Shown here: positions 1-45,204 of the stretch, piece by piece
Layout: the number at the start of each line of letters is the position of its first letter
Position numbering within the stretch: position 1 is the stretch's first letter
Source: Escherichia phage vB_EcoS_L-h 1M
DNA: 45,204 bases
Sequence record: NC_073086.1
Reading direction: 5' to 3' (one strand)
Translations under genes and position numbers: made by a program
Notes under the pieces: generated by a model
What the model was told of the DNA's origin: nothing
The model's database searches: none
What the model saw: only the letters and a program-made list of their open reading frames with translations

Positions 1-1083
1 ACCCAACGCAACGCCGTGCGGAAATTTCTTCTTAAGACGTGCCAGGTCATGCTTGTACTGATACGCAACGAGCAACGGCGCACCGTTCAACTCCTCCACG
101 ATACTTTCCAGCGCGTCCAGCTTCGCGTCGTGAATCTTCACCCACTCGTCGGTCCGTTCGCCGTCTTCGTCCACCTTATACACGGCACCGGACGCAAGCT
201 GAAGGCACTTGATGGTCTTCGACGCAGCGTTCGCCGCCTCTACGGTCCCGCTTTCCAGTTCTGCAAATAGCTCCGCTTCAAACTGATCGTAAATCTTGCG
301 GGCTTTCTTCGGCAGGTCCACAACAACCGGCGTATAGATTGGCTTGTCGCATCCGAAGTATTCAGCCGCGTCAACGGTTAGTGATACGTCAGACAGGCGT
401 TGTTGTATTTCTTTCTCGGAGTTCTTTAGCGGAGCGTGCTGCATCGTGAAGCTGCCAGGCTTAACAGGCTTGCTAATGAACCAGCGATCGGTGAATGCCT
501 TATAGCTACTGCCGAGGCGTTCGCCACCGTCGACAAACCACGTCTGACCCCATAAGTCTTTCAGCCCGTTTGGTGCTGGTGTGCCTGTAAGGTTAATCCA
601 GCGCTTGACGTGTTTATGTGCAATCGCTGCCAGTGCGCGGGCGCGCTTGCTCCCCTGCTTGCTACGATAGCCTTTCAGCTTAGTCGATTCATCGGCAACA
701 ACGACCGTAAAGGGCCACGCATCGCCGTAATATTCGACCAGCCACTCGACCACATCGTAGTTAACACAAACCACGTTAGCGTCGCTATCAAGCGCGGCAA
801 TACGGTCCTTCTCCGGTCCGGTGCCGTCTACGACCAGCAGGGATGAGAACCGCCATTTCTCCTGTTCCGGGGGCCATGTACCCGACGCAACACGCAGCGG
901 GGCCAGCACCAGTACGCGGTCCTCATGATGGGACAGGACGCCAGTCTGGAACATTTTATTCAGCGCCCACATTGTCGCTCCGGTTTTACCGGATCCCATT
1001 GTCGCCCAGATATTACATCGCTTATGCTTGAGGATGAACGCGGTTATCAACTTCTGATATTCGCGGCGTCGGAATCGTGCCAT
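1..1083 (-). CDS. SNF2/DEAD-like helicase, N-terminal ATPase part (runs off window start; 3' part at 44748..45204)
   Basis: ATG at 1081-1083 (rc); rc translation of 961-1020 gives Walker A 'ATMGSGKTGATMWAL'; open frame to position 1. Confidence 0.7.
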   Translation of the reverse strand, partial: MARFRRREYQKLITAFILKHKRCNIWATMGSGKTGATMWALNKMFQTGVLSHHEDRVLVLAPLRVASGTWPPEQEKWRFSSLLVVDGTGPEKDRIAALDSDANVVCVNYDVVEWLVEYYGDAWPFTVVVADESTKLKGYRSKQGSKRARALAAIAHKHVKRWINLTGTPAPNGLKDLWGQTWFVDGGERLGSSYKAFTDRWFISKPVKPGSFTMQHAPLKNSEKEIQQRLSDVSLTVDAAEYFGCDKPIYTPVVVDLPKKARKIYDQFEAELFAELESGTVEAANAASKTIKCLQLASGAVYKVDEDGERTDEWVKIHDAKLDALESIVEELNGAPLLVAYQYKHDLARLKKKFPHGVALG

Positions 1084-1563: not shown

Positions 1564-1842
1564 TTACGCGACCAATTCAGCAACCAATATATCACAGTCG
1601 GCTATGTTGTCGATAACGCGAACGTCCGCACCGCGGCGGGCCATTCGTTCATGTTCACGTACCTGGTGCGGCTTCGGTTTTCCTCCGGGGCGCTTCACTT
1701 CGACGAACACTATTTTGCCGTTGATGATAATAATCAGGTCGGGCGCACCCGCGCGCCCCTCCCATGCCAGTTTTCGGCAGAATCCGCCGACCTCTTTAAC
1801 CCGCTTCATCAGGTGACTCTGCACCTTGCCTTCGGGGGTCAT
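1564..1842 (-). CDS. VRR-NUC domain nuclease
   Basis: motifs 'GAPDLIIIINGKIVFVEVKRPGGKP' typical of VRR-NUC PD-(D/E)XK fold. Confidence 0.7.
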   Translation of the reverse strand: MTPEGKVQSHLMKRVKEVGGFCRKLAWEGRAGAPDLIIIINGKIVFVEVKRPGGKPKPHQVREHERMARRGADVRVIDNIADCDILVAELVA

Positions 1843-5670: not shown

Positions 5671-7093
5671 TGCTTAAGTCCTCGTCAGTAGCTACAGACC
5701 ACGCAGGGCGCGGGTCGTCGATGGGTGCTAATACCGGTTTAGCGGGTGCGCGCGTGATTTTATCACACAACTTTGCCCACACTTTCGGCTTCTCGTCCTT
5801 CAATACCTTCTCGGCATCAGTAGGGCTGAGTAATGTTTCTTTGTACATCACGTCGCGCTTGATCCGGGCCTTCGTGAAGATCTCAATCACTTCGCTCTCG
5901 TCCGCCCACTTGCGGATTCCTTCCTTACCGGCAACCATCTTGAGGCCCAGCGATTCGCCATCACCCGCCATTACGGCCTTGAACACCGCGGACTCGATAG
6001 CCTTGATGTGCTGGCGCATTGCGTCAAGACCTTCATAAGCCTTGCGNAGTTCCNCCNCGCNCANAGCGCNGGGGGNCGCTTNTTTNTTNCCCCNCTTCNC
6101 NCGNNGNGCCGCTTTGNGGGCTTNGNGGGCCATATTGNGGTCGTGATTGGCGCATTCTTCCTCTGTCGAAATACTCACGTCGTCGCCCAGGTCTTCGTCT
6201 GTTGCCGTTGGTGGGGCCATAGTGTCGATTGCAGCCTTAGCGCGGGCGCTACACTGATCCGCAAATCTGCACCATTGACACGCATCAACGCTCGGTCGGA
6301 AGTCGGCACGGGTGAGTCCCTTTTTGCCGCGGTCGTACGCTTCCAGGGCGGCGATAGCACGCTTGGACGCAAACTTCGCGAATATCTCCAGGGCTTCTAC
6401 CGAAATATCCCACTCCGACGCCCCGCCGCAATACGGCTGGAAGATAACCAGGCGCACGGTCGTAATGTCGTACATAGTTTTCAGCTTGCGCAGCAGGCCC
6501 AGCGCATACAACATAAGCTGTTTGTTTTCTTTCGCCTCGACCTTATGCCGCCCCGTCTTCAGGTCGCCAACAATCAGCATGTACGTGCCGTCGGTCTTCT
6601 TCATGACCATGACCATATCCGCAGTGCCGAACGTCTTAACCCGGTTGCCGTCGATCTCGAAGCCAGAGTGTAGGACGCGGGTAAGATCGGCGCGCATCTC
6701 AAGCTGAACAAACTCCGCCACTTCGAGGAGCGGTCGCCAGTGGTCGATGTATGCGTCGCACTGTTTCACCATGTCGTCGTTGACCAGCACGCCGCCTTTC
6801 GGTGCTTTCGGGTGCGCCTTCACCGGCCCCTTACCTTCGTTCTCGACGTAACACCCTTTGTACGTCTTCGCGGTTATCAGCTTTTCACCGGCGATAATGC
6901 GGTTGAGCACGACTTCAGATACAGTGTGCATACTCGTACCGTTAATCGCCGCTTGCCCGGATTCGTTCGGGATACCTTGTTCTACCACCAGGGCGGCTGG
7001 GCAACCCATCCATTTTTTAGCACCGGATGGGCCGAGTAATGAATGCTCCGTGTTGCTACCGGATTGCGTTTTACGTTTTGGTTTAATCGCCAT
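5663..7093 (-). CDS. PD-(D/E)XK Cas4-like exonuclease (DUF2800-type)
   Basis: 'GTADMVMV...GDLKTGRH' nuclease motifs, C-terminal Cys cluster 'CQWCRFADQC'; N-run 6047-6130 inside. Confidence 0.6.
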   Translation of the reverse strand: MAIKPKRKTQSGSNTEHSLLGPSGAKKWMGCPAALVVEQGIPNESGQAAINGTSMHTVSEVVLNRIIAGEKLITAKTYKGCYVENEGKGPVKAHPKAPKGGVLVNDDMVKQCDAYIDHWRPLLEVAEFVQLEMRADLTRVLHSGFEIDGNRVKTFGTADMVMVMKKTDGTYMLIVGDLKTGRHKVEAKENKQLMLYALGLLRKLKTMYDITTVRLVIFQPYCGGASEWDISVEALEIFAKFASKRAIAALEAYDRGKKGLTRADFRPSVDACQWCRFADQCSARAKAAIDTMAPPTATDEDLGDDVSISTEEECANHDXNMAXXAXKAXXXXKXXXKXAXPXAXXXXEXRKAYEGLDAMRQHIKAIESAVFKAVMAGDGESLGLKMVAGKEGIRKWADESEVIEIFTKARIKRDVMYKETLLSPTDAEKVLKDEKPKVWAKLCDKITRAPAKPVLAPIDDPRPAWSVATDEDLSNE

Positions 7094-11489: not shown

Positions 11490-11648
11490 CATAAAATCCG
11501 GGATTGCATAATACACGGCAGCATATTGGAAATCGCGGTCGTCGCTGAACTAGGCAACCAATGCGAGTTGCAGAATGGTGGGTGGGGAATGCAGTATGCA
11601 GTTACAGCAGATAGCGATCAACTTTTTCATGCGCATGATTAATATTGG

Positions 11649-11685
11649 TTGCATTCGTGCCAGCACCCTGCTAGATTGGTTGCAC
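11649..11685 (+). promoter_or_regulatory. promoter with ATTGGTTGCA operator-like repeats
   Basis: TTGCAT - 17 bp - TAGATT (11672-11677), followed by GGTTGCAC; motif also at 11644-11653. Confidence 0.5.
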
Positions 11686-11705
11686 ACCAACAAGAGGACT
11701 GAACA

Positions 11706-12032
11706 ATGAAAAAATTAATCTGGAATTACGCAATGGCTATGGCGAAGGCACAAGAAGCGGCGGAGTTCGCCGGTGAGGGGGTGGAAGCAGTAGAAAGACT
11801 ATCGGCAGCGTGGGCCGTTGTGCGGGTGATGCGGCGGGCCATCGCCGTTATGCTTGAGCGCCGCTTCGACACGATGGAAGAGATCCAGCCACTGGCGAAC
11901 GCCATCCAGGACTACGCGCTTGCATTCTCCCGTGAGCGCCTGGCGTATCGCTTCGGGATCGGTGAGACGGCAGTGACAAACGTCGCCCGGATTAAAGCAC
12001 AGCGCGAACTATTTGCCCAGCTTGCGAAATAA
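11706..12032 (+). CDS. hypothetical early protein
   Basis: ORF preceded by TTGCAT-N17-TAGATT promoter and conserved leader 'ACCAACAAGAGGACTGAACAATG'. Confidence 0.5.
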   Translation: MKKLIWNYAMAMAKAQEAAEFAGEGVEAVERLSAAWAVVRVMRRAIAVMLERRFDTMEEIQPLANAIQDYALAFSRERLAYRFGIGETAVTNVARIKAQRELFAQLAK

Positions 12033-22793: not shown

Positions 22794-22828
22794 TTTGTCT
22801 TCCTTCATATCTCTGTTGGTGTGCAACC

Positions 22829-22858
22829 AATATAGTGCAACCAATACGCGGATTGCAA
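22829..22858 (-). promoter_or_regulatory. leftward promoter of opposite-strand cassette
   Basis: minus strand TTGCAA - 18 bp - TATATT then GGTTGCACACCAACAGAG leader; ATTGGTTGCAC twice. Confidence 0.45.
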
Positions 22859-22865
22859 GCGAATT

Positions 22866-22893
22866 TTGCGATTATTTTTATCGCTGATAATAT
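22866..22893 (+). promoter_or_regulatory. promoter candidate for scaffold/capsid operon
   Basis: TTGCGA - 16 bp - TAATAT, ~55 bp upstream of scaffold ATG. Confidence 0.3.
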
Positions 22894-22947
22894 TAAAGCG
22901 TGAAGTCGAGCGGGTGGCCTGCTCTGCCATAATCCCAGGGGGATAGC

Positions 22948-40621: not shown

Positions 40622-41197
40622 TTAATTTGAGTTTTCCCAGTCCATTTTGCGCCGCACAAGCGGGCTTTCGTAGTATTCCTTACCTTCCACTTCCACTAAA
40701 TGCCAGTCATTCACAATCACGTATGGCTCTGCTATATCCTCAATCACGCCGTGCGCGCTATGCTGCCCGAACGACACGCCAACCAGAATAACACCGGCAA
40801 CCCGACGGGAAAGATACTCGCGGGCACAACGGGCCTCAACCAGACCGCGACGGATGCCGCTGGTGGCTTTGACCTCATATGTCCAGACGGCATCAATCAT
40901 GTGCTCTTTGTAGTCAGGACCGGATTTTACCTTGCGCTTGCCGACCATGATAATATCGCCTCGGTCGATAGTGTTAGCGCTAAACAGGCCGGTACGCATT
41001 AGCAAACCTTGCGGGATACAGCTACGCCCGCCCGCCTGCCCTTCGAGGTACATTCCCGCAAACATCTCACCCAGCACACCGACAAGGCGGCTTTGCTTGC
41101 ACGCGTCAGACTTTAAGCGCCACTGTTCAAATTCGATGCTGGCTAACATTGCCGCCAGGTGGAATTGTTTACCGGTTATTTCATATTCGCCGTACAT
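40622..41197 (-). CDS. hypothetical protein (possible PD-(D/E)XK-like motif)
   Basis: 191 aa; 'DYKEHMIDAVWTYEVK' weakly resembles D...(D/E)xK. Confidence 0.35.
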   Translation of the reverse strand: MYGEYEITGKQFHLAAMLASIEFEQWRLKSDACKQSRLVGVLGEMFAGMYLEGQAGGRSCIPQGLLMRTGLFSANTIDRGDIIMVGKRKVKSGPDYKEHMIDAVWTYEVKATSGIRRGLVEARCAREYLSRRVAGVILVGVSFGQHSAHGVIEDIAEPYVIVNDWHLVEVEGKEYYESPLVRRKMDWENSN

Positions 41198-41238
41198 GTT
41201 GCATCCCTCATTGATGCGGGCCGAAGCCCGCGATTAAA

Positions 41239-41730
41239 TTATTTAAGTGCGCTGCGTACCAATTTCTTTTCCATGTTACGGAAATCTTCCTGCGTCATGC
41301 AGATTTTCGATCCGTCCTCGCCAGTTAGCAGGACCATAGGCTGCACATCTTGCGCTACAACCCCAAAATCGCGGGCATTCACCGTCTTGCCCGCGGAAGA
41401 ATGCCCGCCTTTTAGGCTGTCGAATTGTGCTGCCGTTGTATCGATCTGAATCTCGTCATGCACGGTCATGTAAGACTCGCCCAGCAGGGCGGCATACGCC
41501 ACCAGATCCACGATGTTATCTTCCTGGTGCTTACGGTGCTGGCGCACCAGCTTCAGGCAGATCAGGAAGGTCCAGGCTTCTTGCTCGGTAAGGTCGCGCC
41601 CGGTAAGCGCGTTAAACACGGCGGCGACCTGTTTAGCGCTGCGTTCTTCTTTCGCGTTGTCATAGCCGTTTTCTTTCCCGCGCTGTTCCATAGTGGTGGC
41701 GGCGTTTTTGCAGTATTCGTATGCTTTCAC
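41239..41730 (-). CDS. hypothetical protein
   Basis: 163 aa; GTG start with AAGGG RBS. Confidence 0.4.
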   Translation of the reverse strand: MKAYEYCKNAATTMEQRGKENGYDNAKEERSAKQVAAVFNALTGRDLTEQEAWTFLICLKLVRQHRKHQEDNIVDLVAYAALLGESYMTVHDEIQIDTTAAQFDSLKGGHSSAGKTVNARDFGVVAQDVQPMVLLTGEDGSKICMTQEDFRNMEKKLVRSALK

Positions 41731-41784
41731 AGTATTACCCTTTTTAGTGAGGGGGCTTTATTGCCCCCGACACGTTTAATATAG

Positions 41785-41806
41785 TGCAACCAACCTATTG
41801 GTTGCA
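41785..41806. promoter_or_regulatory. palindromic operator-like site TGCAACCAA-N3-ATTGGTTGCA
   Basis: inverted half-sites of the recurring motif; overlaps stop codon of 41795..42265. Confidence 0.45.
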
Positions 41807-42265
41807 AGTGAATTTTGCAACGTTTATTGCGTAAATTTTCGGGACCAAATCACCACACGCCCGACGAATTGCCGCGATGTTCTTCTCGCAATCTTCAATG
41901 ATGACCAGTTCCGACACGTCCGCATAGCAGACCATTTTGAACACGGCGCACGCCTTAAACTCTGGCGGCGGGGTGTCGTCCAGCATGTGGCGCATAAACA
42001 ACCGGCCTACCGGGAAGACCTCCAATTGCTCGGCGGTGGTGTCCCAGCATTCTCGCTGCCGGTTGGTCAGATACGCGATCTCGAAGCCTCGCTCTTTGTA
42101 CATGCGCAGCAACGGCAGCATATCCATATTCAGGTCTTCGCGTACGTGCGCCTTGTGCCACTTCGCCCAAAAGGTGGATTTAGTTTTTATACCAGGCACC
42201 AGGTCGGCGCGCGCATCGCTTGAACCGTTAATAACTCCATCCAAATCGCAAATCAGTAATTTCAT
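41795..42265 (-). CDS. HAD-superfamily phosphatase (nucleotidase-like)
   Basis: N-terminal 'MKLLICDLDGVI' HAD motif I. Confidence 0.6.
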   Translation of the reverse strand: MKLLICDLDGVINGSSDARADLVPGIKTKSTFWAKWHKAHVREDLNMDMLPLLRMYKERGFEIAYLTNRQRECWDTTAEQLEVFPVGRLFMRHMLDDTPPPEFKACAVFKMVCYADVSELVIIEDCEKNIAAIRRACGDLVPKIYAINVAKFTCNQ

Positions 42266-42486
42266 TTTAGGCTCTCAATAAGGGTGGCTCGGGCGCTACG
42301 CGCGGTGTAAGAGTTGCACACGAAATGACAACGTCGGGTCATGACAAGCCAACCGGTGAGGTCAAGGCCCAGGATGTATTCGGGGCGAGACGCGCGCACC
42401 ACACGATCGCGGCGTGGGTCGATGTTATAGTCTTTTTGCATTTGGTCTACGACCGCGTGGTCGCGGTCAACGATTAAGATATTCAC
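42262..42486 (-). CDS. hypothetical protein
   Basis: ORF track, GTG start, overlaps neighbours. Confidence 0.3.
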   Translation of the reverse strand: MNILIVDRDHAVVDQMQKDYNIDPRRDRVVRASRPEYILGLDLTGWLVMTRRCHFVCNSYTARSARATLIESLK

Positions 42487-42952
42487 GTAGTTCTCCTTCG
42501 CTCATTATTTCAATTTGTGCGCTGCCGATGGGCGGCGCTTCGTCAAAGATTATCAATTGCTGGCACTTGTTATTGCTCGGCCCGACTTCACCGGTTACAG
42601 CATGTATGAATCGGATCCGCCAGTCCAGAAGAATTATCAGGTTTGCAGTCTTCCGGGCCAGCTTCGCCCACTTAGTCGACGTGTCCTGATTCAGTAGCAT
42701 GACGGTCCGGCGTCCGTGCGCTGCGCACTCGACCCACGGCAGCGGATCGGAATACGGCGGATTGCACCACTTCCACCCTTTCAACTCCGACCAGTCCGCA
42801 TCGAGCGCGCTGTGCTCTGCCGTGAAGTAACGCGGCAGCAGGTGGTTTGCGTCGCTCGCCGCCATATCGTAACGGAATCGGTACTTCCGGCGCAGTGGTT
42901 TAAATAAAGCTGGCGGTGTGCGCCAGCTATCTTTTTGCTCATTCTCCGTCAT
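42467..42952 (-). CDS. dam: DNA N6-adenine methyltransferase (phage Dam family)
   Basis: 'WRTPPALFKPL...FRYDMAASDANHL...WKWCNPPYSDPLPW' matches phage Dam-family motifs incl. NPPY. Confidence 0.75.
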   Translation of the reverse strand: MTENEQKDSWRTPPALFKPLRRKYRFRYDMAASDANHLLPRYFTAEHSALDADWSELKGWKWCNPPYSDPLPWVECAAHGRRTVMLLNQDTSTKWAKLARKTANLIILLDWRIRFIHAVTGEVGPSNNKCQQLIIFDEAPPIGSAQIEIMSEGELREYLNR

Positions 42953-43397
42953 AGTCTGGATCTATCGCATACAGGGCGGTTTTCTTGCCGCTAGACAGCA
43001 CACGTTGGACTCGGGATATCTCCGCCCTACTGAGCGGTCTGCTATCGGAATAGTAGCTGCCGTTTGCACGCCACGCTATACGCACCAGTCCTTCCCGCGG
43101 GATCGAAGACTGGCGGCCTTTGGGGCGCACGTACTCCTCCGCGCGTTTACAATGCTCCCGCAGACCGTCGGCAGTGATGCGGTTTAGCGCCACGCTGGTT
43201 GTGTATCCGGTGCGCTGCATAATACCCATCAACTCATACAGCAGATCGAAGCGCTCCTCTAATTCCTTGCGCGCCTTCTCCTCGCCTTCATAGCTCGCCA
43301 GGTAGGTGTCCGCCAGCGCGTTCGCGCGTTCGGCCTGTTCGCGGGCTTCGAGGCATTGCGCGGCCCAGTAATTTTTTTCTTCTTGTAAAATTTTCAT
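42939..43397 (-). CDS. hypothetical protein (coiled-coil N-terminus)
   Basis: ORF track; ATG 43395-43397 (rc). Confidence 0.4.
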   Translation of the reverse strand: MKILQEEKNYWAAQCLEAREQAERANALADTYLASYEGEEKARKELEERFDLLYELMGIMQRTGYTTSVALNRITADGLREHCKRAEEYVRPKGRQSSIPREGLVRIAWRANGSYYSDSRPLSRAEISRVQRVLSSGKKTALYAIDPDYDGE

Positions 43398-43640
43398 CTA
43401 TTTAGTCTCCGTAGTGCGGATTTCATCGCGTGGAATAAATTTGCCGTCCATCTCCACCCAGCAGACTCCGTATCGCCATTGGGTGTTACGGCCTGTTTGC
43501 TCGGCATACACGGTCTTGCATTCGTAGCGTTCCGTGTAGTAAATAGCCGTCGAAGGTATGCCAATACAACCGGCAATCATGAGGGTGAGTAGCACCCAAA
43601 ATCGAAGGTCGCCGTCGTAGTCGAAAAATAATGATTTCAT
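43398..43640 (-). CDS. small membrane protein
   Basis: ATG 43638-43640 (rc) with GGAGA RBS; hydrophobic 'FWVLLTLMIAGCIGI'; preceded by terminator. Confidence 0.4.
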   Translation of the reverse strand: MKSLFFDYDGDLRFWVLLTLMIAGCIGIPSTAIYYTERYECKTVYAEQTGRNTQWRYGVCWVEMDGKFIPRDEIRTTETK

Positions 43641-43656
43641 CGTGTTGTCTCCGGGT

Positions 43657-43684
43657 ATTAAAAAGGGCGTCCAACCGGACACCC
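43657..43684 (-). terminator. rho-independent terminator
   Basis: 8-bp stem with one G-U pair, loop of 4, T-tract on minus strand; 17 nt before RBS of 43398..43640. Confidence 0.5.
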
Positions 43685-43693
43685 TTAAGATAA

Positions 43694-43720
43694 TGCAACC
43701 AATATGATTATGCAACCAAT
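43694..43720 (-). promoter_or_regulatory. two direct copies of motif (rc ATTGGTTGCA) upstream of terminator and small membrane gene
   Basis: TGCAACCAAT at 43694-43703 and 43711-43720. Confidence 0.4.
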
Positions 43721-44044
43721 TTACGAATAAAAATTTGGGTCGCGCGCTACGTCTACCAGATACAGATTGCTCATGCGGTTGCCGTAGTGCCCTGGTGTGC
43801 GCTGGCGGCACACAACGGCGAAGCCTGGGGGAATTGTATTGCCCGTCTCGATAATCCACGCCACGCGTGCGCCAGACAGCGTCTTGCCGTTGTATTCGAT
43901 GCGCGTGCCACCATCGGCAGTGTTAAGGTTGCCAATCTTACAGCCTGTGGACTTCAGGCGAATGACACCGGTCTTGCTGTCGTAGGAAAAAAGCTGATTG
44001 GTCATTGCCACTGAAAAGTCGATTGCGTCGAATGCAGTATTCAT
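43721..44044 (-). CDS. HNH homing-endonuclease-like protein
   Basis: 'FSYDSKTGVIRLKSTG...NGKTLSGARVAWIIETGNTIPPG...GHYGNRMSNL' resembles HNH_3-type phage endonucleases. Confidence 0.5.
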   Translation of the reverse strand: MNTAFDAIDFSVAMTNQLFSYDSKTGVIRLKSTGCKIGNLNTADGGTRIEYNGKTLSGARVAWIIETGNTIPPGFAVVCRQRTPGHYGNRMSNLYLVDVARDPNFYS

Positions 44045-44751
44045 TTTAAATTTTCCTCGTTAACCGCTATCGCGAAGCCGCGCGGGGTGAGTGAGCGGAT
44101 TAATTTTGTACGAGCGGATTTACCACCGAGGCGACTATACTGCTTCGAGTACCCATTTTCAACGAAAACAGGTTTCTTCTCTGGCATACGGAAGCCGTTG
44201 CCGGTCCATAAGCAGGTCAGCTTCGGATATGAATCGCGGGCGTTGATGTATTCCGGGAATAACGGGTGCACGTCATCCTCCGGCAGATATCCACCATACT
44301 CCCACGGGTTAAACGAGTGGTCCGGCTTGCGCCATTGGGTCGATAGCACGCTGCGCGGATTCTCAATCATATATGGCACTTCGAAGAAGTCCCCCAGGTA
44401 AGCGGCGATCTTCGCGGTGCGCACCGCCTTAAGCTGAAAGGCCGGGTCTTTGGCCCGCTTGCGCGGGAAAGCTGGCGCACCGCTAACTGCCAGATCCGTA
44501 CACAGCGGGAACGCATATATGATATCCGGCGTACCGAAATCGCCATTCATCGCGCGGTCTACAAAGTCCAGATCGATAAACTCATTGCGATATCGGATCC
44601 CGCGACCATAAATCCGGTAGTCTAGGTACGACCCGTGGTCGGCTTCGGAGTAGTTGAAGCAATAACACTTATGCCCCATCTCGGCAGCACGCTCAATCAT
44701 CAAGCCGCTGCCGTCAAACAATGACCAGATTGTCATTTTAGCAATAGTCAT
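44041..44751 (-). CDS. DNA cytosine-5 methyltransferase-like protein (short)
   Basis: motif I-like 'SLFDGSG', motif IV-like 'FPLCTDLAVSG', motif VI-like 'IENP'; 236 aa. Confidence 0.4.
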   Translation of the reverse strand: MTIAKMTIWSLFDGSGLMIERAAEMGHKCYCFNYSEADHGSYLDYRIYGRGIRYRNEFIDLDFVDRAMNGDFGTPDIIYAFPLCTDLAVSGAPAFPRKRAKDPAFQLKAVRTAKIAAYLGDFFEVPYMIENPRSVLSTQWRKPDHSFNPWEYGGYLPEDDVHPLFPEYINARDSYPKLTCLWTGNGFRMPEKKPVFVENGYSKQYSRLGGKSARTKLIRSLTPRGFAIAVNEENLK

Positions 44752-45204
44752 TTGCGCGCCTTTTTAGCTTTCATGTATTCCATCAAGTCGTCCTGAATAT
44801 CTCGCTTACTGTCGCGACGTTCGGCGACCAGTTCATCCAGTGTCCCGCGCGCCTGGATAATGTAGACGAATACCGGACGAGGGTGTCCGGCTTGCATCTG
44901 GCGAACCGGCCCTATACGCTCCACAATCTGCGAAAAGTGCTCATAGTTCCAGGTGTCTGAGAAGATAGCAAGGTGGTGCCCCCCATCCTGCAGGTTAAGT
45001 CCGTGACCCGCTGACGCTGGGTGTGCAAACATGATGGGGATCTCGCCCCTGTTCCACGCTTCCATATCCTTATTTCCTTGCTTACCCTTACCCATCGCTA
45101 CGCCGTGCGGGAATTTCTTCTTGAGACGCGCCAGATCATGCTTGTACTGGTATGCGACGAGCAACGGCGCGCCGTTCAACTCCTCCACGATACTTTCCAG
45201 CGCG
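44748..45204 (-). CDS. SNF2/DEAD-like helicase, C-terminal part (5' part at 1..1083)
   Basis: translation continues that of window start ('...EELNGAPLLVAYQYKHDLARLKKKFPHG' at both ends); open at window end. Confidence 0.7.
   Translation of the reverse strand, partial: ALESIVEELNGAPLLVAYQYKHDLARLKKKFPHGVAMGKGKQGNKDMEAWNRGEIPIMFAHPASAGHGLNLQDGGHHLAIFSDTWNYEHFSQIVERIGPVRQMQAGHPRPVFVYIIQARGTLDELVAERRDSKRDIQDDLMEYMKAKKARK

Follow-up and report, generated by a model that had tools for sequence, protein, structure and literature searches.

Gene content of a methyltransferase-bearing cluster in the putative leftward early operon of a Dhillonvirus

Introduction

Do nine phage genes that include two DNA methyltransferases and a phosphatase form a dedicated anti-restriction pathway, as the original prediction had proposed, or are they accessory genes lying side by side? 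At 100% identity, the window analysed here (45,204 nucleotides) is Escherichia phage vB_EcoS_011D5 (Dhillonvirus), whose complete genome is in GenBank as MT478993. The answer that we consider likely is that the region closes the Dhillonvirus leftward early operon at its promoter-distal end, with small, mostly dispensable accessory genes that serve no single pathway. This long operon would be devoted to replication and DNA metabolism.

Results and discussion

The nine genes are conserved

All nine of the contiguous minus-strand genes predicted between positions 40622 and 44751 were recovered, with coordinates that agree with the GenBank CDS table of MT478993 (Table 1). The block was common to 157 phage records, with at least 80% of it covered in 150 of them, and a metagenomic relative keeps the gene order at ~55% protein identity, conservation that marks them as true genes rather than chance ORFs. 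The preceding SNF2-type helicase gene is split by the ends of the record, its remainder lying at window positions 1-1083; by tblastn, residues 1-361 of the Oekolampad helicase matched 1083..1 and residues 324-474 matched 45203..44751. The Edwardsiella phage eiAU-183 keeps a module of helicase, HNH-like, C5-methyltransferase and Dam genes, and a more distant phage contig carries polA, helicase, MT-A70 methyltransferase and HAD genes and, further on, the nuclease gene. The region is ordinary and in large part already known and annotated.

Table 1. Features of the cluster and its surroundings (window coordinates)
Feature	Position	Strand	Description
191-aa gene	40622-41197	-	PD-(D/E)XK nuclease-fold protein; final gene of the operon
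GC hairpin GCGGGC-UUCG-GCCCGC	41216-41232	-	between 163-aa and 191-aa genes
163-aa gene	41239-41730	-	DUF6378 domain and hypervariable C-terminal part
Promoter-like cassette	41731-41807	-	palindrome, -35, -10, hairpin
6-bp hairpin	41751-41768	-	in cassette 41731-41807
-10 TATATT	41778-41783	-	in cassette 41731-41807
Palindrome TGCAACCAA-CCTA-TTGGTTGCA	41785-41806	-	perfect, 9+4+9
-35 TTGCAA	41802-41807	-	in cassette 41731-41807
156-aa gene	41795-42265	-	predicted stand-alone HAD phosphatase, PNKP-type
74-aa gene	42262-42486	-	Ksap1 homologue
161-aa gene	42467-42952	-	T1-type Dam N6-adenine DNA methyltransferase
8-bp GC-rich hairpin, then UUAUUU	42908-42928	-	within first codons of dam
152-aa gene	42939-43397	-	conserved protein, unknown function
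80-aa gene	43398-43640	-	accessory; single hydrophobic, apparently membrane-spanning stretch
Intergenic cassette	43641-43720	-	two direct TTGGTTGCA, -10-like box, hairpin, then RBS
10-bp hairpin and U run	43663-43686	-	in cassette 43641-43720
-10-like TATCTT	43687-43692	-	in cassette 43641-43720
TTGGTTGCA direct copies	43711-43719, 43694-43702	-	in cassette 43641-43720
107-aa gene	43721-44044	-	degenerate, truncated HNH_3-like; start overlaps dcm stop
236-aa gene	44041-44751	-	predicted Dcm-like C5-cytosine DNA methyltransferase, compact
SNF2-type helicase gene, 3' part	44748-45204	-	precedes cluster

Two orphan-like DNA methyltransferases

The 236-aa protein had no sequence match in Pfam, NCBIfam or PDB; it matched PHROG 757 at 7.4e-82, and the motifs F12-x-G14-x-G16, P82-x-C84 and E130-N131-P132 were invariant among 42 homologues. 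Its AF2 model (pLDDT 90.6) contains the SAM-binding fold on which the original prediction had been staked, and Foldseek ranked the catalytic domains of DNMT3A/3B best, with a probability of 1.0. Motifs and model together point to a genuine C5-cytosine methyltransferase with all the catalytic motifs and a small target-recognition region, as had been proposed. The accompanying remark that it is unusually short did not hold, as ~230 aa is normal for the family (225-250 aa in 1507 phage records).

The closest characterized relative is the Dcm of the Drexlerviridae phages K42 and KarlJaspers (Bas06), whose genomes are 95.4% identical. The KarlJaspers enzyme is 53% identical to the 236-aa protein over the full length, with the same size, gene length (711 bp) and PHROG family, and with the catalytic residues C82 and E128 corresponding to C84 and E130 here. 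In contrast, 47% of the residues differ (including K176 there and L178 here), and so does the context, as here dcm follows the helicase gene and overlaps the HNH-like one. The K42 Dcm places 5mC on CCWGG, its 711-bp gene triggers retron Ec86 (Eco1), and a 2,262-bp deletion that takes out dcm is found among the escapers (10.1101/2023.08.16.553469). By extrapolation from the 53%-identical enzyme, CCWGG is probably also the target here.

The 161-aa protein matched Pfam PF05869 over its full length with E=2.7e-36 and, at 125 bits, far above the cut-off of 28.1, confirming it as a phage T1-type Dam. The NPPY catalytic motif (residues 64-67), the small size and the orphan status assigned by PADLOC are those of this family, whereas its TIGR01712 score (87 bits) falls below the equivalog cut-off of 97. 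It is 45% identical to the Dam of eiAU-183 and only 30% identical to that of KarlJaspers. Membership of this family is the basis for assuming GATC as its target. Neither GATC (166 sites, observed/expected 0.79) nor CCWGG (143 sites, 0.93) is avoided in the genome.

Both enzymes would methylate the phage DNA during replication, at GATC and probably CCWGG, making its methylation independent of the Dam/Dcm status of the host; protection would extend only to enzymes blocked by these marks (MboI/DpnII-type and EcoRII-type). Blunting some restriction enzymes by self-methylation is a reasonable role for the pair, but broad anti-restriction is not. In E. coli K-12 hosts, GATC and CCWGG are methylated already, so that any benefit from the phage copies is hypothetical. 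Carrying these genes may also have a cost: retrons sense homologous phage Dcm as well as Dam-type methylation by phages, and KpAvs2 senses Ksap1.

An unlikely alternative is that the methyltransferases work for the phage's own DNA transactions rather than to evade defences, for example by timing replication or packaging, or by keeping GATC fully methylated and so escaping SeqA binding and mismatch repair by the host. Dam methylation is used by phage P1 at its pac site, GATC is abundant here, and both genes follow polA and the helicase directly within the replication operon. Against this, deletions in relatives are viable and a growth defect was not reported. Such deletion mutants (PMC11564622; 10.1101/2023.08.16.553469) make both methyltransferases dispensable accessory genes in relatives.

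An HNH-like protein without catalytic residues

The 107-aa protein had no Pfam match, even at E<=10; PHROG 99 (1.9e-15) and weak but consistent tblastn matches to HNH_3 endonucleases support the family to which it had been attributed, but not the endonuclease activity. It shares with HNH_3 (PF13392) phage homing endonucleases the N-terminal beta-rich region and the R-x-x-W ... P-x-G ... N-L core. When aligned to bona fide HNH_3 proteins, however, the catalytic Asp-His (DH) is replaced by Val-Cys (VC) and HR by AR, and the protein stops short of the distal N..N and the AP2-like DNA-binding part. It is thus a degenerate, truncated HNH_3 relative lacking the catalytic histidine. The gene holds a fixed position in 160 phage records, so that it is a fixed core gene and not a sporadic, mobile nuclease.

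A Ksap1 homologue and a PNKP-type phosphatase

The 74-aa protein is 86% identical to, and of the same length as, the ORF located between dam and the phosphatase gene in phage SECphi18. This ORF encodes Ksap1 (KpAvs2-stimulating protein 1), an activator of the KpAvs2 defence protein (PMC11564622), and the 74-aa protein is its homologue; thus, one of the five supposed unknowns has a published counterpart. Residues L39, L47 and T50 are conserved, whereas position 30 is V instead of K, as in the non-activating SECphi6 variant, and position 60 is Y instead of F.

The HAD-family assignment of the 156-aa protein was borne out by four invariant motifs (D7-x-D9, R69, K104 and D125) in the alignment of homologues. 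It matched PHROG 415 ('polynucleotide kinase') at 2.4e-36, all its Pfam and NCBIfam matches were below the cut-offs (Acid_phosphat_B, 2e-05), and no cap domain was matched. Its profile found the phosphatase domain of Pnkp1 (PDB 4xrp) at E=3.7e-11 and T4 Pnk (1ltq) weakly, and it has DxDG motif I and the remaining HAD motifs in common with them. With its active site intact, the protein is a relative of the 3'-phosphatase domain found in polynucleotide kinase-phosphatases, and domain similarity predicts a polynucleotide 3'-phosphatase. Unlike Pnkp1 and T4 Pnk, it has no P-loop kinase domain, and the cluster has no ligase partner; therefore, a heal-and-seal system would be incomplete here. Most likely the protein would remove 3'-phosphates from broken nucleic-acid ends, in healing after nuclease damage.

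This profile does not fit the part in DNA modification that had been ascribed to the phosphatase, and it weakens the idea of a coordinated system in which the methyltransferases, the phosphatase and some of the unknowns modify DNA beyond simple methylation. The two methyltransferase genes share an operon, 1.1 kb from each other, their pairing is kept in Eiauvirus, and a HAD phosphatase sits beside a methyltransferase in three lineages. However, Pfam, PHROG and NCBIfam searches detected no glycosyl-, amino-acyl- or hydroxymethyl-transfer enzymes in the cluster, nor anything else hypermodification-like, and the methyltransferases are dispensable in relatives. In a Drexlerviridae phage with both enzyme types, dam and dcm are ~6 kb apart on opposite strands and, therefore, form no obligatory unit. 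Dhillonvirus phages were restriction-sensitive relative to the truly modified Queuovirinae in the BASEL phenotyping, whose authors could not tie restriction resistance in Drexlerviridae to methyltransferase genes in any simple way (PMC8594841). We thus regard a joint pathway as highly unlikely; what stands of the anti-restriction proposal is the presence of two SAM-dependent DNA methyltransferases.

A nuclease-fold protein and three further proteins

The 191-aa protein, from a rare family of very narrow distribution, could not be related at sequence level to any family in Pfam or PDB. Its alpha-beta-beta-beta-alpha-beta core with an intact E...D...ExK signature identifies it as a PD-(D/E)XK nuclease-fold protein, which is a new assignment. 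Like the small nucleases of this class (I-Ssp6803I, archaeal Hjc, type II restriction enzymes), it has a Glu in the first helix, an Asp opening strand 2 and E-x-K on strand 3, but it has extra N- and C-terminal elements. Most likely it would cut DNA, with host DNA breakdown and branched-DNA processing as candidate roles.

Type II restriction enzymes are among its fold neighbours, some of its relatives in BFVD carry the name 'restriction endonuclease', and nuclease and DNA methyltransferase occur together in three lineages, in one of them with an unrelated MT-A70 type. With the catalytic signature intact, it could belong to a dispersed restriction-modification-like takeover module, in which the nuclease would cut unmethylated GATC/CCWGG DNA (of dam/dcm-negative hosts or competing phages) and the phage would be shielded by its own methylation. 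We give this very little credence, and retain a group of accessory genes as the preferred reading.

The first ~87 residues of the 163-aa protein matched Pfam PF19905 (DUF6378) at 2.3e-09, above the cut-off; homologues range from 130 to 223 aa, with a variable C-terminal half, and no relative was found in PDB. The 152-aa protein is helix-rich, with an apparently coiled-coil N-terminus and a C-terminal AW..NGS.Y.D.R motif conserved in the homologue alignment. Its PHROG 10530 label, 'DNA ligase', found no support in Pfam, NCBIfam or PDB, and a KxDG motif is absent. The 80-aa protein belongs to PHROG 18961, of unknown function, and by eye contains the hydrophobic stretch FWVLLTLMIAGCIGIPSTAIYY. 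No tblastn match was found in SECphi18, where this accessory gene is absent. A longer, 153-aa reading of it from a GTG was discarded, as it would extend over the intergenic signals and into the gene upstream.

Promoter-like cassettes and hairpins

The predicted palindromic operator-like sites and hairpins were found, among them a perfect palindrome and four hairpins (Table 1). The operator-like sites are real and belong to a conserved, genome-wide TTGGTTGCA promoter-associated motif. A promoter scan of the whole region showed no enrichment (5 sites versus 4.4+/-2.1 in shuffles), and terminator-like sites numbered 16 versus 5.4+/-2.0, several of them being overlapping variants of one site. The hairpin at the start of dam gave a folding z-score of -3.6, with none of 200 shuffles folding as well, and the GCGGGC-TTCG-GCCCGC core of the hairpin preceding the 191-aa gene was the same in Oekolampad and in L015, a contig of ~55% identity.

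The layout of the intergenic cassette downstream of the HNH-like gene recurs in SECphi18, Oekolampad and L015. The cassette upstream of the 163-aa gene is kept in the same three, and changes in its hairpin stem are paired. The two internal cassettes each have a 5' hairpin, a -10 box and two TTGGTTGCA copies, and they probably divide the region into three putative transcription units: helicase, dcm and HNH-like; 80-aa, 152-aa, dam, ksap1 and HAD; and DUF6378 and nuclease.

Gene content and conservation of the cluster

The window is the complete 45,204-bp record of Escherichia phage vB_EcoS_011D5 (MT478993, genus Dhillonvirus), whose positions 40622-44751 matched the 4.1-kb cluster with 100% identity. 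The block was found in 157 phage records, in 150 of which at least 80% of it was covered at 80-95% identity. All nine ORFs were recovered at the coordinates first assigned to them, with a single correction for the ORF at 43398, which is the 80-aa ATG form preceded by a GGAG ribosome site and not the 153-aa GTG form. Oekolampad (BASEL Bas18), a sister phage with fuller annotation, has these genes labelled as a Dcm-like C5 cytosine methyltransferase, a putative homing endonuclease, a Dam-like N6-adenine methyltransferase and a putative phosphatase. The observation of the cluster was confirmed and its interpretation supported in part; the region is an ordinary one, known in its essentials before this analysis. 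Its discovery value is little, with the genome public and the labels Dcm-like, Dam-like, phosphatase and homing endonuclease already present in sister genomes.

A long leftward operon, which runs from DNA polymerase I through small genes and an SNF2-type helicase, has the cluster as its distal part and meets a tail-fibre gene convergently. A metagenomic relative contig with proteins about 55% identical (L015) keeps the order polA, helicase, 231-aa Dcm, 107 aa, 142 aa, Dam, 76 aa, HAD and, after an interval, DUF6378 and 191 aa. Neither an Rfam family nor a tRNA was found in the cluster region. Pfam returned nothing at E≤10 for the 236-, 107-, 152-, 80- and 74-aa proteins, and single-sequence searches against PDB sequences with the 236-, 163-, 107- and 161-aa proteins gave nothing useful.

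The record begins and ends at arbitrary points that split the helicase gene, and the first 115 nt of the record recur at 91% identity as its last 115 nt, an assembly overlap. For the helicase (window 1-1083 plus 44748-45204), GenBank gives only a 143-aa 'DNA helicase' fragment, with no annotation in 1-1087. The record also holds 78 N bases (e.g. 1172-1259, 6047-6138).

Coordinates of the cluster genes, sequence elements and related features in the window
Feature	Strand	Position	Remark
191-aa protein	-	40622-41197	predicted PD-(D/E)XK fold
163-aa protein	-	41239-41730	N-terminal DUF6378 domain
C-terminal half of 163-aa protein	-	41239-41500	variable among close relatives
HAD protein (156 aa)	-	41795-42265	putative 3'-phosphatase
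74-aa protein	-	42262-42486	Ksap1 homologue
Dam (161 aa)	-	42467-42952	PF05869
152-aa protein	-	42939-43397	
80-aa protein	-	43398-43640	moron-like in appearance
107-aa protein	-	43721-44044	HNH-like
236-aa protein	-	44041-44751	Dcm-like
Helicase residues 1-361		1083..1	
Helicase residues 324-474		45203..44751	
TTGGTTGCA, exact copies		8426, 11645, 11676, 12228, 15007, 22822, 22836, 41785, 41798, 43694, 43711	
TTGGTTGCA, one-mismatch copies		5394, 5410, 11239, 11274, 15030	
Motif pair in cluster		41785-41806	perfect palindrome
Motif pair in cluster		43694-43719	direct pair
Small nuclease-like gene		1564-1842	annotated 'putative restriction-endonuclease'
Tiny annotated CDS		11596-11709	mostly filled by a motif pair
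Tiny annotated CDS		22805-22930	mostly filled by a motif pair

A compact C5-cytosine methyltransferase

The 236-aa protein had no Pfam, NCBIfam or PDB sequence match even at permissive thresholds, and this absence explains the caution of the original prediction, which had called it methyltransferase-like and unusually short. The gathering score of PF00145 was not reached, that model giving nothing even at E≤10, and a precomputed PF00145 match was present in just 3 of 120 homologues among the matches listed. The protein matched PHROG 757 at 7.4e-82 and had 1646 database homologues, mostly of 225-250 aa, so that its length is typical; tblastn found it in 1507 phage records (Dhillonvirus, Drexlerviridae, Jersey-like, rV5-like, some T4-like, phiKO2 and 9NA). 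Among 42 aligned homologues, the SAM-binding FxGxG of motif I (F12-D-G14-S-G16), the Pro-Cys of motif IV with the catalytic cysteine (P82-L-C84) and the ENV-type glutamate of motif VI (E130-N131-P132) were invariant.

An AlphaFold2 model of the protein (pLDDT 90.6, pTM 0.90) contained a Rossmann-type methyltransferase fold like that of solved C5-methyltransferases. Of the 61 matches that Foldseek gave in the PDB at E≤0.001, the best 50 were C5-DNA-methyltransferase structures from eukaryotes, nearly all of them catalytic domains of DNMT3A/3B/3C; among C5 enzymes, these have the smallest target-recognition regions. The identification as a C5-methyltransferase, for which lack of a SAM-binding fold had been named as the counter-evidence to look for, was upheld by this fold and the invariant motifs.

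Over its full length, the protein was 53% identical to the 236-aa Dcm of KarlJaspers (Bas06). In K42, whose genome shares 95.4% identity with that of Bas06, the 711-bp dcm triggers retron Ec86 and placed 5mC on the CCWGG site of the retron Ec86 msDNA, as detected by LC-MS, and a quadruple mutant (C82A, E128A, K175A, K176A) of its Dcm was inactive (10.1101/2023.08.16.553469). Residues C82 and E128 of the K42 enzyme align with C84 and E130 of the 236-aa protein, for which 5mC formation and CCWGG specificity are predicted from the 53%-identical Dcm. On the basis of homologue lengths, motifs, fold and identity to this Dcm, the 236-aa protein is a real and ordinary member of the compact phage Dcm family, which by sequence represents a divergent compact subfamily of C5-cytosine DNA methyltransferases.

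The Dam and HNH-like proteins

The 161-aa protein scored 125.2 bits against Pfam Dam PF05869, well above the gathering score of 28.1, and its translation carries the (D/N)PPY catalytic motif as N64-P-P-Y67, so that its assignment to the phage Dam-family N6-adenine methyltransferases stood. It missed the TIGR01712 equivalog cut-off (87.3 vs 97.05 bits) and matched orphan-methyltransferase models of PADLOC, a scan in which Dam was the only match. Its specificity is presumably GATC, as in the family (phage T1 Dam).

The 107-aa protein matched PHROG 99 and gave weak tblastn matches that were consistently annotated as HNH endonucleases. It was aligned with five HNH endonucleases, all with a Pfam HNH_3 (PF13392) match; unlike these comparators, it had no match to PF13392 at E≤10. 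Its beta-beta-alpha-Me motif was incomplete, the catalytic Asp-His being replaced by Val-Cys and the upstream His-Arg by Ala-Arg, and the protein stops short of the distal Asn residues (N..N segment) and of the AP2-like domain. The gene kept its place in 160 records (at least 80% identity) and in L015, in contrast to the sporadic, mobile distribution of homing endonucleases. In Edwardsiella phage eiAU-183 (L014 4299-7829), a 40%-identical, degenerate HNH-like protein, gp31, is encoded between the helicase and a C5 methyltransferase gene, which is followed by a PF05869 Dam gene. In this related genus, Eiauvirus, the C5 enzyme belongs to the classical PF00145 type, with 330 aa, and takes the place of the compact 236-aa type; therefore, the neighbourhood of HNH-like and C5 methyltransferase genes outlasts replacement of the enzyme.

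Because of the replaced catalytic residues, the constant position and the eiAU-183 neighbourhood, the 107-aa protein is a fixed HNH_3 derivative, probably non-catalytic, that accompanies a C5 methyltransferase. Its description as HNH endonuclease-like was thus right as to kinship with HNH_3 proteins but misleading as to endonuclease function, the catalytic His being gone. A remote possibility is that this protein, translationally coupled to dcm, binds DNA in partnership with the compact enzyme.

A phosphatase of probable end-healing type and a PD-(D/E)XK fold

The 156-aa HAD protein presents the nucleophile motif as D7-L-D9-G, and motifs I-IV were all present, with D7, D9, R69 (after T/S67), K104 and D125 invariant in five sequences down to 25% identity. 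With the profile of these five sequences, Pnkp1 (4xrp), an RNA-repair enzyme, was matched in its phosphatase domain at 3.7e-11, over just 70 residues, and T4 polynucleotide kinase only weakly (0.076). The protein also matched PHROG 415 ('polynucleotide kinase') at 2.4e-36 and Pfam HAD_PNKP at 0.18; Acid_phosphat_B fell under its cut-off. A kinase domain is absent. The best reading of these matches is that of a stand-alone polynucleotide 3'-phosphatase, which would act in end healing and not as a DNA-modification step.

The 191-aa protein belongs to a rare orphan family that has just seven close clusters and, in a set of 1.84 billion proteins, 15 representatives. Neither a sequence-level match to a characterised PD-(D/E)XK member nor more than chance-level matches of the family profile against the PDB were obtained. 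Ten residues were invariant in 18 family sequences (G40, E44, G64, R68, D81, E108, K110, Y128, I161, W165); they contain the E...D...ExK signature of PD-(D/E)XK nucleases, and in an AlphaFold2 model (pLDDT 83) the signature residues sit on the canonical alpha-beta-beta-beta-alpha-beta core. Numerous phage proteins that are uncharacterised were matched in BFVD, together with a small number that carry the name 'restriction endonuclease'. The family is assigned from this model to the PD-(D/E)XK nuclease fold, a first fold-level assignment that is new but modest, and nuclease activity is predicted.

A restriction-modification-like pairing of this nuclease with the methyltransferases was considered. 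A 36%-identical homologue from another phage type ends a module of polA, helicase, MT-A70 methyltransferase and HAD genes, and an additional homologue is not near any methyltransferase gene; the pairing finds little support. It is very improbable that the 191-aa protein is a methylation-sensitive endonuclease forming with Dam and Dcm a dispersed restriction-modification-like takeover module, in which the PNKP-like phosphatase would process the ends. Such a module, if real, would destroy the unmethylated DNA of dam/dcm-negative hosts or co-infecting phages.

A second small nuclease-like gene lies outside the cluster (window 1564-1842), and in L015 the gene at the matching position, directly 3' of polA, has a faint VRR_NUC Pfam match. 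From that annotation and the match of its counterpart, the phage probably has at least one PD-(D/E)XK-type enzyme besides the 191-aa protein.

The small proteins of the cluster

The 74-aa protein, listed among the proteins of unknown function in the original prediction, is a homologue of Ksap1 by identity, length and neighbours: it aligned without gaps at 86% identity to the SECphi18 ORF between dam and the phosphatase gene. This ORF is Ksap1, which KpAvs2 binds to detect Dhillonvirus infection (PMC11564622). The allele shares L39, L47 and T50 with Ksap1, but has V30, like the non-activating SECphi6 variant, and Y60 instead of F60.

The variable C-terminal half of the 163-aa protein has no constant length or sequence in close relatives, whose proteins measure 130-223 aa and contain unrelated inserts; the pattern suggests an arms-race surface or a recombination hot spot, and this hypervariability occurs among Dhillonvirus genomes otherwise more than 90% identical. 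No structural relative of the protein was found in the PDB by sequence or with the DUF6378 profile (chance-level matches only), and DUF6378 had only passing mentions in the literature. The PHROG label 'phosphofructokinase' for this protein was unsupported and was rejected.

The 152-aa protein had no detectable relatives of known function, its profile giving chance-level PDB matches only. Its label 'DNA ligase' (PHROG 10530) was also discarded: there is no KxDG nucleotidyl-transferase motif of an ATP-dependent ligase, no Pfam, NCBIfam or PDB match, and the size is far under that of any ligase. The 80-aa protein has a single hydrophobic, apparently membrane-spanning stretch, and could possibly be a superinfection-exclusion or membrane-acting factor. 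Its gene, absent from SECphi18 where the flanking intergenic cassette is retained, looks like a moron-like insertion.

Accessory functions and immunity

The whole genome has 166 GATC sites (observed/expected 0.79) and 143 CCWGG sites (0.93). As both are near expectation, avoidance of the phage's own target sites was rejected, and the lack of avoidance fits self-methylation. Across the whole window, GAATTC was depleted (2 sites vs 8 expected), as was CTAG (19 vs 55).

The original prediction of an anti-restriction DNA-modification cluster holds in part, for the two methyltransferases, whose protection would be narrow; it does not extend to the phosphatase, which reads as end healing. A concerted modification pathway, in which the genes would act together, has little in its favour. 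In the BASEL tests, Dhillonvirus phages were restriction-sensitive, in contrast to genuinely modified phages, and the authors found methyltransferase genes without a simple link to restriction resistance, a statement made of Drexlerviridae (PMC8594841). Mutants of K42 without dcm are viable (10.1101/2023.08.16.553469), and so are SECphi18 mutants without ksap1 and part of the upstream gene (PMC11564622), which we infer to be dam. In one Drexlerviridae genome, dam and dcm are unlinked.

Most likely, the genes of the cluster serve accessory roles independently of one another, with methylation of narrow protective range, the healing of broken ends, a nuclease, and small proteins that interact with the host. 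In this picture, some of them double as signals sensed by bacterial immunity. Homologues of two of the genes are published triggers, Dcm for retron Ec86/Eco1 and Ksap1 for KpAvs2, and the Retron-Eco7 paper mentions a Dhillonvirus trigger of unknown function, its gene being unspecified in the text. The region would then be a compact case of phage accessory genes blunting one defence layer and exposing the phage to another. The value of the analysis is mainly corrective: the short methyltransferase is real and family-typical, the phosphatase leaves the modification story, and the labels 'HNH endonuclease' and 'DNA ligase' are misleading. Small additions are the 191-aa nuclease fold, the degenerate HNH-like gene, two rejected database labels and the conserved cassettes described below.

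Conserved promoter-like cassettes

The operator-like palindromes and hairpins noted in the original prediction proved real, with a layout kept across relatives. The 9-mer TTGGTTGCA has 11 exact copies in the genome vs about 0.3 expected, nearly all in non-coding gaps and usually paired 13-35 nt apart; a TATATT-like box often follows it, with a TTGCAA -35 supplied by the inverted copy. Each of the two pairs in the cluster belongs to a cassette in which two motif copies are followed, 1 or 2 bases on, by a TATATT/TATCTT box, then by a stable hairpin and a ribosome site. This layout is common to both cluster sites, SECphi18, Oekolampad and the ~55%-identity L015, and the hairpin stems vary through paired substitutions or paired deletions. 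SECphi18 has 12 copies of the motif in matching places, and L015 and eiAU-183 carry it too. A further hairpin lies within the first dam codons (z = -3.6), and the UUCG-loop hairpin 5' of the 191-aa gene has a stem-loop core identical across the lineages checked.

A generic promoter scan of the cluster gave no enrichment, and no description of the motif was found in the literature, only unrelated primer sequences. In this phage group, the motif probably serves as a promoter element or binds a regulator. As read from the sequence, the cassettes would act as internal promoters with structured 5' leaders, splitting the region into three transcription units, and such a conserved promoter-associated motif could aid the mapping of Dhillonvirus transcription. 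Outside the cluster, one of the two tiny annotated CDSs occupied by motif pairs is flagged 'No significant similarity found', and both are more likely regulatory DNA than genes.
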